A DNA stretch of 64,000 nt, from the sequence record PP328843.1. One strand, given 5' to 3'. The translations under genes were made by a program, and so were the position numbers. The stretch is from Escherichia phage 215Ecol030PP. The first letter of the stretch is position 1, and each line of letters opens with the position of its first letter. Below the pieces are notes generated by a model that was not told the DNA's origin, did no database searches, and saw only the letters and a program-made list of their open reading frames with translations. Below are positions 29,438 through 31,176 of the stretch, piece by piece.

Positions 29438-30367
29438 ATGTCAGGATATAATTCTCAGAATCCAAAGGAACTCAAAGATGTCATTCTAAGACGTTTAGGG
29501 GCTCCAATTATCAATGTTGAGTTAACACCCGATCAAATTTATGATTGCATCCAGCGTGCCCTAGAATTATACGGTGAATACCATTTTGATGGACTCAATA
29601 AAGGTTTTCATGTGTTTTACGTAGGGGATGACGAAGAAAAGTACAAAACCGGAGTCTTCGATTTAAGAGGTTCCAACGTATTTGCAGTAACCCGCATTTT
29701 ACGCACAAATATTGGGTCAATAACATCTATGGATGGAAATGCTACATATCCGTGGTTTACTGACTTTCTTTTAGGAATGGCTGGTATTAATGGCGGTATG
29801 GGGACTTCTTGTAATAGATTTTATGGACCAAATGCCTTTGGAGCTGATTTAGGATATTTTACTCAACTTACCAGTTATATGGGAATGATGCAAGATATGC
29901 TCTCTCCTATTCCAGACTTTTGGTTTAATTCAGCAAATGAACAGCTCAAAGTCATGGGAAACTTCCAAAAATATGATTTAATTATCGTAGAAAGCTGGAC
30001 TAAATCATACATTGATACTAATAAAATGGTTGGAAATACAGTAGGATATGGAACAGTCGGTCCACAAGATAGCTGGTCATTATCTGAACGATATAATAAC
30101 CCAGACCACAATTTAGTTGGTCGCGTTATTGGTCAAGATTCGAATGTTAAACAGGGTGCTTATAATAATCGTTGGGTGAAAGACTACGCTACAGCTTTAG
30201 CTAAAGAATTGAATGGTCAAATTTTAGCACGCCACCAAGGTATGATGCTTCCTGGCGGTGTTACGATTGATGGACAACGCTTAATAGAAGAAGCTCGATT
30301 AGAAAAAGAAGCATTACGTGAAGAATTATACTTGCTCGATCCTCCGGTGGGAGTGTTAGTTGGATGA
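29438..30367 (+). CDS. 13: neck protein gp13 (309 aa)
   Basis: length/synteny. Confidence 0.92.
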
Positions 30368-31176
30368 ATTATACTAAAATTTACAACTCTCTTATAGAAA
30401 GATCTCTTAAAAGAGGTCTTAATAAGAAAAAATTAGATTATTACACAGAATCACACCATATTGTCCCAAAATCCATGGGAGGAGATGATTCTAGAGAAAA
30501 CAGGGTTTTACTGACAGCAAGAGAACACTATTTTGCGCATGAGCTTCTTTTTAAAATACACCGAAATTCTGAAATGGCTTATGCCTTAATAAAATTCTCC
30601 AAGGGTACAAAAGAGCAGAGAATTGTAAGTAAAGATTACGGATGGATTAAAGAGGAAACATCTAAAATTAGATCAGAAACCATTAAAAAGTTTTGGGCGA
30701 ATCTATCACCAAATTTAAAACAGGAACGAATTAAAAAAGCCGGAAAAGGCATTAAAAAAACTAAATCTTTATGGACAGATGAAAAGAGAAAAGAAGTTAA
30801 TGCAAATATTCGAAAAGCTTCAGTGAAATATTTGGAATCGTTATCAGAAAACGAAATGTTAGAATATAAAGAAAGATGTTCTAAACAGATGAAAGATTTC
30901 TGGTCTGAGCTTAAAAGTGACCCCCAAAAATACGAAAAGTATTTAAATAAACTATCTAAAGGTCTTGCAAAAGTCGAAAAGAGAAATTGCCCGCATTGCG
31001 GAATTATATGTGATGTAGGAAATTATGGAAAATACCACGGCGATAAATGCAAAGTTATCACGGGTGTATCTCATAGCAGAGAAAAATTAAAATGCCCGCA
31101 CTGTTCTAAAATCATGGATAAGTCTCACGCTAAAAGATACCATTTTGACAATTGCAAATTTAAGAAGGTCGAATAA
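30364..31176 (+). CDS. freestanding HNH homing endonuclease with C-terminal Cys-rich (CPHCG/CPHCS) repeats, inserted between genes 13 and 14 (270 aa)
   Basis: HNH core [34 protein letters not shown]; ATGA overlap with gene 13 stop. Confidence 0.8.

Follow-up and report, generated by a model that had tools for sequence, protein, structure and literature searches.

In phage T4 the neck genes 13 and 14 adjoin, and the locus described here raises the question of what a 270-residue open reading frame (ORF) is doing between them in Escherichia phage 215Ecol030PP. The stretch analyzed, hereafter the window, comprises 64,000 nt of sequence record PP328843.1, and all positions refer to this 64,000-nt stretch. 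The window is a Tequatrovirus genome, and its closest record is phage YUEEL01, with 97.8% identity over 25 kb. An initial annotation, made from the DNA letters alone, had proposed that the ORF at 30364–31176 (+ strand, ATG start, coordinates including the stop codon) is a free-standing HNH homing endonuclease gene inserted between the two neck genes. Our comparative analysis indicates that the ORF is probably a homing endonuclease gene of the T4 Mob (HNH) type that stands free at the 13/14 junction.

The ORF, its HNH motif and both of its CPHC motifs were present exactly as the initial annotation had described them. The endonuclease ATG overlaps the stop codon of gene 13 as ATGA at 30364–30367, also as described, and the ORF terminates with TAA at 31174–31176. 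The annotation had further placed this end 2 nt before gene 14. The ORF does end just upstream of gene 14, but a single T separates its stop codon from the gene 14 ATG at 31178, two being the difference between the coordinates. The ORF does not represent a chance reading frame, as the protein matched both Pfam HNH_4 and PHROG 655 and had 419 homologs at an E-value of 1e-5 or lower. The HNH_4 match covered residues 25–52 and scored 24.4 bits against a cut-off of 22. The score for Pfam HNH (PF01844) was 18, under the cut-off of 21.4, and PF01844 is matched by 64 of 81 homologs. The PHROG 655 'homing endonuclease' profile aligned with residues 1–267 with an E-value of 2.7e-52. T4 MobE showed 33% identity over 247 residues (E-value of 6e-29) in an alignment that spanned the N-terminal MNYxKIYN...HHIxP...N...EH..AH core and the first CPHCG...H...C finger, and RB3 MobD showed 47% identity, confined to residues 1–117 (E-value of 5e-32). 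In a tblastn search against phage genomes, the T4 Mob proteins and others of their kind emerged as the relatives, encoded at many other sites (among them nrdA/nrdB, topoisomerase and primase genes), and a tblastn search against the 64-kb window found no paralogs of the endonuclease.

The structure of the window protein was modeled with AlphaFold2 (AF2), and the model had a mean predicted local distance difference test score (pLDDT) of 94.4. The HNH catalytic core (residues 27–59; 30442–30540, +) was delimited by the HNH_4 match, by invariant alignment columns, by the AF2 model and by profile matches to the Protein Data Bank (PDB). In the alignment of 81 homologs, residues H31, H32, N46, H55 and H59 were invariant. 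The modeled HNH domain (residues 1–80) adopts a ββα fold, in which two strands (residues 29–32 and 47–50) are followed by a helix (residues 52–66), with pLDDT values above 95. The PDB sequence-profile search aligned the core with the HNH of McrA, of a group II intron maturase and of Cas8-HNH; it returned generic HNH cores only, and no structure of a homing endonuclease, I-HmuI included, was matched. Judged by the curated profile and the predicted fold, the window protein is a member of the HNH (ββα-metal) superfamily. The middle region (residues 89–203; 30628–30972, +) is modeled as five long helices and is presumed to be a DNA-tracking linker. Toward the C-terminus, the sequence, the 81-homolog alignment and the AF2 model point to two CCHC zinc-finger modules (30979–31155, +), with the ligands C209/C212/H225/C229 in the first and C244/C247/H260/C264 in the second. 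Both fingers (residues 206–233 and 241–264) are predicted to be small ββα units with pLDDT values of approximately 90 or higher. The first aligns with the finger of MobE, and all four ligands of the second are invariant across the 81 homologs. Going by its homology and its combination of an N-terminal HNH domain with a C-terminal finger module, the window protein is a T4 Mob-type member (MobA-E, PHROG 655).

Upon comparison with T4 MobE, we found the two systems to be similar in several respects. Both proteins belong to the same family (PHROG 655) and share the N-terminal core MNYxKIYxxLI...HHIxP...N...EH..AH together with a C-terminal CPHCG...H...C finger. Both genes are free-standing between two essential co-transcribed genes (nrdA and nrdB for mobE), apparently promoterless and sporadic in T-even phages, and both ORFs contain a hairpin with a 9-bp stem and a 4-nt loop approximately 30 nt from their start. 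Carrier-specific polymorphisms are found within a flanking gene in both cases; those of mobE lie approximately 125 nt into the downstream gene (PMC2790892), whereas those of the window abut the insertion in the upstream gene. Further differences were present. The mobE gene is located among early/middle nucleotide-metabolism genes, whereas the 13/14 gene lies among late structural genes, and MobE contains one finger, whereas the window protein contains two CCHC fingers and 38 additional residues. In contrast to mobE, the window hairpin lacks a U tract, and no promoter consensus that might restore downstream expression was found inside the window ORF. Of the five T4 Mob endonucleases, MobE alone is listed as shown to be mobile (PMC2988022), and no in vitro activity has been obtained for it so far according to PMC2790892, whereas activity and homing of the 13/14 element are predicted from its sequence.

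MobD of T4/RB3, a free-standing HNH protein encoded in the nrdC.11/mobD.1 region, has the highest N-terminal similarity to the window protein among the T4 Mob proteins, but the C-terminal halves are unrelated, with no detectable MobD match to the finger region. The mobD gene also occupies a different genomic site and has no 5′ hairpin, and its mobility is listed as not determined in PMC2988022. With I-HmuI and I-TevIII, the window protein has in common the chemistry of HNH catalysis and an extended, modular layout in which DNA binding falls to a separate region, although no significant sequence or fold match of either to the window protein was recovered. I-HmuI is described as a nickase in the discussion of the MobE paper (PMC2790892). 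Both of these enzymes are encoded inside group I introns. In the window, by contrast, no group I intron or other RNA family was matched in Rfam at an E-value of 1 or lower between 29300 and 31400, and genes 13 and 14 are intact, separate ORFs; the gene therefore does not belong to the intron-encoded class.

Homing endonuclease genes of this kind are expected to be sporadic, and the distribution of the ORF was determined among Tequatrovirus records. Carriers were counted as records with ORF matches at 96–100% nucleotide identity, and the denominator of approximately 501 comprised the records that matched the adjacent part of gene 13, a set that holds some duplicate GenBank/RefSeq entries. The ORF was far from universal at the 13/14 site, being found in 46 of the approximately 501 records, or about one in eleven. 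The carriers include phages of Escherichia, Shigella, Salmonella, Citrobacter and Yersinia, and they belong to the International Committee on Taxonomy of Viruses (ICTV) species T6, effone, snuabm, yueel1, fps2 and others. The T6 endonuclease protein is identical to the window protein. T4, T2, RB14 and other non-carriers have a precise empty site, TAA-T-ATG. As a side observation, the T6 record AP018814.1 names gene 13 'aerobic NDP reductase large subunit', a label apparently carried over from SHFML-26, and lists the endonuclease as 'hypothetical protein'; the gene 13 label is an annotation error in public records and not biology.

This distribution bears on a different explanation, according to which the protein is not a selfish homing element but a domesticated nuclease that serves the phage, for example in DNA packaging next to the terminase genes, in the destruction of competitor or host DNA or as a regulator of another nuclease. 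The gene belongs to the late morphogenesis operon, in which genes 14, 15 and 16 separate it from the terminase gene 17 downstream, and the protein is under purifying selection. Terminase-adjacent HNH proteins are packaging cofactors in cos phages, such as the HK97-like phages (PMC10448857), and Wilson and Edgell could not exclude that MobE regulates another nuclease (PMC2790892). Approximately 90% of the close relatives, T4 and T2 included, nevertheless lack the gene and yet package normally, which indicates that it is dispensable, and a terminase-associated HNH packaging role was rejected on this ground. T4-type phages lack a cos site and rely on headful packaging, which also counts against domestication. 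Moreover, the closest relatives of the protein are Mob-type homing endonucleases at many unrelated sites, and homing elements typically have precise, cassette-like edges and a linked, recoded putative target sequence of the kind seen here. We consider domestication highly improbable.

The edges of the element were mapped by comparing ten carriers with nine non-carriers, and this comparison of the 13–14 junctions of related phages, which the initial annotation had proposed, delimited the insertion against precise empty sites. Gene 13 (29438–30367, +) encodes the 309-residue neck protein gp13; it matched the PHROG 211 head-tail adaptor Ad2 profile with an E-value of 2.8e-43, and the corresponding gene is annotated as gp13 in T4, T6 and other phage records. 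Gene 14 (31178–31948, +) encodes the 256-residue neck protein gp14 (Pfam T4_neck-protein, E-value of 1.3e-138), and its start is the annotated start in T4 and T6. In T4, T2 and ES19 the two genes adjoin with TAA-T-ATG between them, in agreement with the earlier statement that they are neighbors in T4. The limits of the element are 30347 and 31173. At the right junction, TAATATG (31174–31180, +) is common to carriers and empty sites in the alignments, and the stop codon of the ORF takes the place of the gene 13 stop codon. The left edge falls between 30346 and 30347, inside gene 13, so that the last seven codons of this gene are part of the mobile element.

These seven codons (30347–30367, +) form a recoded gene 13 tail. 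In an alignment that displays eight carriers and nine empty sites, carriers have GTG GGA GTG TTA GTT GGA TGA, which encodes VGVLVG and a stop, whereas empty sites have TTT GGA ATT TTG/T GTA GGT TAA, which encodes FGI(L/F)VG and a stop. The two versions show eight fixed differences in 20 nt, of which two lead to conservative substitutions (F to V and I to V), and the stop codon changes from TAA to TGA; the remainder are synonymous. An exact-pattern scan of IMG/VR for the 21-nt recoded patch recovered nothing, and IMG/VR apparently lacks these phages; the linkage between patch and ORF was therefore assessed in the GenBank phage set, using a 42-nt query over the recoded tail. Exactly 46 records matched this query at 90% or above, each of them annotated with the ORF, and the other records matched at 81.6% or less. 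As the recoded tail and the ORF always occur together, the mobile unit is 30347–31173, and the tail may be a candidate self-immunity patch.

We also compared the location of the gene with those of its closest distinct homologs. The three closest, with 57%, 52% and 52% identity, are found on the metagenomic contigs L021, L022 and L023, which derive from divergent T4-like phages. All three orthologs occupy the corresponding junction, with the end of a gene 13 homolog on one side and the start of a gene 14 homolog on the other. The ATGA overlap recurs in L022, and in L021 and L023 a 9-nt spacer takes its place. A second Mob-type HNH gene was found in L021 at 1621–2214, between genes 14 and 15, and Mob-like endonucleases are also annotated at the 14/15 junction of other T4-like phages, among them Klebsiella KpV477, Serratia LC53 and Yersinia phiR1-RT. 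These 14/15 proteins belong to the same family and to the same neck-gene module, one junction downstream; they differ from the window protein in that their identity in the HNH core is only approximately 31% and they are shorter, with a single finger (198 residues and one CCHC finger in L021). Given their location at another junction, their target is presumably another one as well. Taken together, the 13/14 orthologs and the 14/15 Mob-like genes point to the neck module as a recurrent landing site for the Mob family.

The relation between the ORF and its genomic backgrounds was examined through the flanking genes. Flank divergence between carriers and non-carriers (0.051) was equal to the within-group diversities (0.053 and 0.049). 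Among 171 flanking polymorphic sites, none was significantly associated with ORF presence, and even sites 30334, 30337 and 30340, in the range of 7–30 nt from the element, gave p-values of 0.65–1.0. Co-conversion tracts were sought through linkage of flank polymorphisms to ORF presence, and none was found. The synonymous divergence (dS) of the ORF was 0.095, compared with 0.28 for gene 13 and 0.21 for gene 14, and thus two- to three-fold lower, in a comparison for which carriers had been picked to include the most divergent ORF copies; the ORF alleles are therefore younger than their backgrounds. The ratio of nonsynonymous to synonymous divergence (dN/dS) was 0.086, which indicates purifying selection, although weaker than that on the neck genes (approximately 0.01). 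The catalytic residues and zinc ligands were intact in eight of the ten copies examined, the window copy included, and it follows from this and from the dN/dS value that the protein is maintained. Homology, free-standing position, sporadic presence, uncoupling from the flanks, dS, dN/dS and intact catalytic residues all came out as would be expected of the free-standing HNH homing endonuclease that the initial annotation had envisaged.

Several points weigh against this interpretation. T-even phages recombine so freely that the flank unlinkage and the mosaic distribution could arise without homing; because of this intense recombination, the patterns of spread are what homing would produce and not proof of it. 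The nucleotide diversity of the ORF (0.021) is below that of genes 13 and 14 but approximately equal to that of gene 15. NUMOD3 (PF07460), which is present in 57 of the 81 aligned homologs, was not matched in the window protein at an E-value of 0.01 or lower, and the same region is modeled here as long helices. The linkage between patch and ORF may only reflect eight mismatches in 20 nt acting within a non-homologous block, and not selection for immunity, and the patch could equally be the leftover of a divergent donor genome. The orthologs in L021 and L023 retain CCATTTGG at the start of the gene 13 tail, as do the empty sites, which argues against that part of the tail as a critical target. 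A limited literature search found no published description of a 13/14 endonuclease, which may still exist. Finally, single-base frameshifts in homopolymer runs were observed in at least three carriers (F1/FN, SHFML-26 and CJY920), and these may represent decay or sequencing error. In phage F1, a change from A7 to A6 at ORF nt 391 splits the endonuclease ORF; in CJY920, whose record is marked UNVERIFIED, a change from A5 to A6 at ORF nt 563 does so; and in SHFML-26 the endonuclease match is 808 nt long and frameshifted.

The frameshifted copies also speak for the explanation that the gene is a stranded relic, that is, a once-homing Mob-type gene that is immobile now and has been spread by ordinary recombination only. 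Such a relic would persist because its clean removal would damage the gene 13 stop codon or the gene 14 translation signals. In agreement with this, the 3′ end of the ORF supplies the predicted ribosome-binding site of gene 14: GAAGGT in the last codons of the ORF (31164–31169, +) is, from its sequence context, the predicted replacement for AGGT in the gene 13 tail, the putative Shine-Dalgarno sequence of gene 14 at the empty site, and this arrangement would select against deletion. The flanks, moreover, show no long co-conversion tract, and T4 itself harbors a defunct endonuclease, I-TevIII (PMC2790892). A gene that had merely been stranded would not, however, be expected to show the low dN/dS and the intact catalytic and zinc ligands reported above. 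The ORF has also moved across backgrounds recently, as indicated by a dS two- to three-fold below the values for the flanking genes, and the site has been kept across phages whose orthologs are 43–48% diverged. The relic explanation is improbable in our judgment, and a resident homing endonuclease gene remains the preferred reading.

Expression signals were examined next to and within this homing endonuclease gene. A consensus scan for the T4 late promoter, TATAAATA, gave no match on the + strand from 23030 to 35123. No terminator-like sites were present on the + strand within the ORF, and sigma-70-like matches were no more common than in shuffled sequence. Since no promoter or terminator consensus of its own was found, the endonuclease gene looks like a promoterless cassette in the late operon, and it is this missing consensus that suggests expression within the operon. 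The mobE gene has likewise been described as a promoterless cassette in its operon (PMC2790892). The recoded patch creates a possible Shine-Dalgarno sequence, GGAG, at 30350–30353, 10 nt before the endonuclease ATG, and empty sites have no GGAG at the corresponding position. In the ViennaRNA fold of 30342–30353 (+), GGAG could pair with CUCC in two Pro codons (30342–30345) to form a 4-bp mini-hairpin. Speculatively, this weak pairing could keep the ribosome-binding site closed, to be opened by a ribosome that terminates on gene 13.

A stronger hairpin was found inside the ORF at nt 36–57 (30399–30420, +), with a 9-bp stem and a 4-nt loop (AAGAUCUCU-UAAA-AGAGGUCUU). Its predicted folding free energy (dG) is −10, with a z-score of −6.4 relative to shuffled sequences, and its 46-nt window is more stable than any other in the ORF. 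The orthologs in L021–L023 contain a GC-rich hairpin at the same place with the register shifted by two bases (nt 38–57 in L022). The T4 mobE gene has an internal terminator hairpin, described as a 9-nt stem with a 4-nt loop 27 nt past the AUG (PMC2790892); we located it at nt 33–54, which is about the same position as the 13/14 hairpin, and the two sequences are unrelated. The 30399–30420 hairpin is probably not an intrinsic terminator, because no U tract follows on its 3′ side. A terminator there would also be costly, as no late-promoter consensus is found downstream to restore the expression of genes 14–17. A 5′ hairpin was rejected as a general Mob trait: for 49 IMG/VR ORFs the mean dG was −6.2, compared with −5.1 for control windows (Wilcoxon p = 0.22). 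Given this lack of family-wide enrichment, the hairpin is specific to certain lineages, namely the 13/14 lineage, mobE and a few others.

These features allow a more elaborate proposal, in which the 13/14 element is a compact, self-contained cassette whose non-coding features (recoded tail, internal hairpin) have co-evolved with it in a site-faithful lineage. We offer this only tentatively and think it rather unlikely as a whole. The recoded tail could then serve target immunity, the ribosome-binding site of the endonuclease itself and the pairing with the Pro-Pro codons, and the internal hairpin could throttle endonuclease expression without ending the essential late transcript for genes 14–17.

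If the homing endonuclease assignment is correct, a working mechanism can be outlined. The endonuclease gene, apparently promoterless, would be read from the long late transcript over genes 13–17. Its translation would be weak and would depend either on the ATGA overlap, which would couple it to the termination of gene 13, or on the GGAG in the recoded tail. The zinc fingers and the helical, NUMOD3-like region would bind the conserved 13/14 junction DNA of a co-infecting T-even phage that lacks the gene, and the N-terminal HNH domain would nick this DNA, as MobE appears to do, or cut both strands. Recombination-dependent repair of the T4 type would then copy 30347–31173, the recoded gene 13 tail included, from the carrier into the broken genome. 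The carrier itself would be protected by the split of its junction, and possibly also by the eight changes in the 20 nt to the left of the insertion. The host phage would remain unharmed, with gp13 intact apart from its two conservative substitutions and with a new ribosome-binding site supplied for gene 14.

Some further features of the window were noted. In T4, the endonuclease genes segC and segD are placed at the 5.1/5.4 and 23/24 positions, respectively (PMC2988022). In the window, ORFs resembling genes 5.1 and 5.4 adjoin (16085–16915), and ORFs resembling genes 23 and 24 are just 83 nt apart (43130–43214), the gene identities being judged by ORF length only; on that footing, such short gaps suggest that the phage lacks segC and segD. 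Upstream of the element, the 31-nt spacer between wac (stop codon at 29404–29406) and gene 13 (start at 29438) contains a GC-rich hairpin, GGGGCC-GCAA-GGCCCC (29410–29425, +). This hairpin has a GNRA-type tetraloop and is unusual for an AT-rich genome. No T-run follows immediately, and TTTT starts 6 nt later; the hairpin may be an RNA-stability or processing element. Nucleotide diversity falls abruptly from approximately 0.16 in the fibritin gene (wac, 27949–29406) to 0.01–0.05 at the start of gene 13 (29438), in carriers and non-carriers alike. At the wac/gene 13 junction, approximately 1 kb upstream of the element, a hypervariable gene thus gives way sharply to the conserved neck and terminase genes.

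Several database records already label the gene 'homing endonuclease', and it is otherwise an ordinary example of a well-understood class. Its main value lies in the pairing of T6 with T4 and T2, which is an immediately testable system: as T6 carries an identical protein and T4 and T2 lack the gene, a homing or marker-exclusion test at a late structural junction is feasible with standard strains. The patch of eight substitutions provides a concrete, 20-nt hypothesis on target recognition and self-immunity. The 13/14 element also adds to the evidence for the neck module, with its 13/14 and 14/15 junctions, as a recurrent landing site for Mob genes. Should the tentative proposal of a co-evolved cassette prove true, a lineage faithful to the 13/14 junction across T4-like genera would drive the exchange of alleles in the neck/terminase module over the long term.

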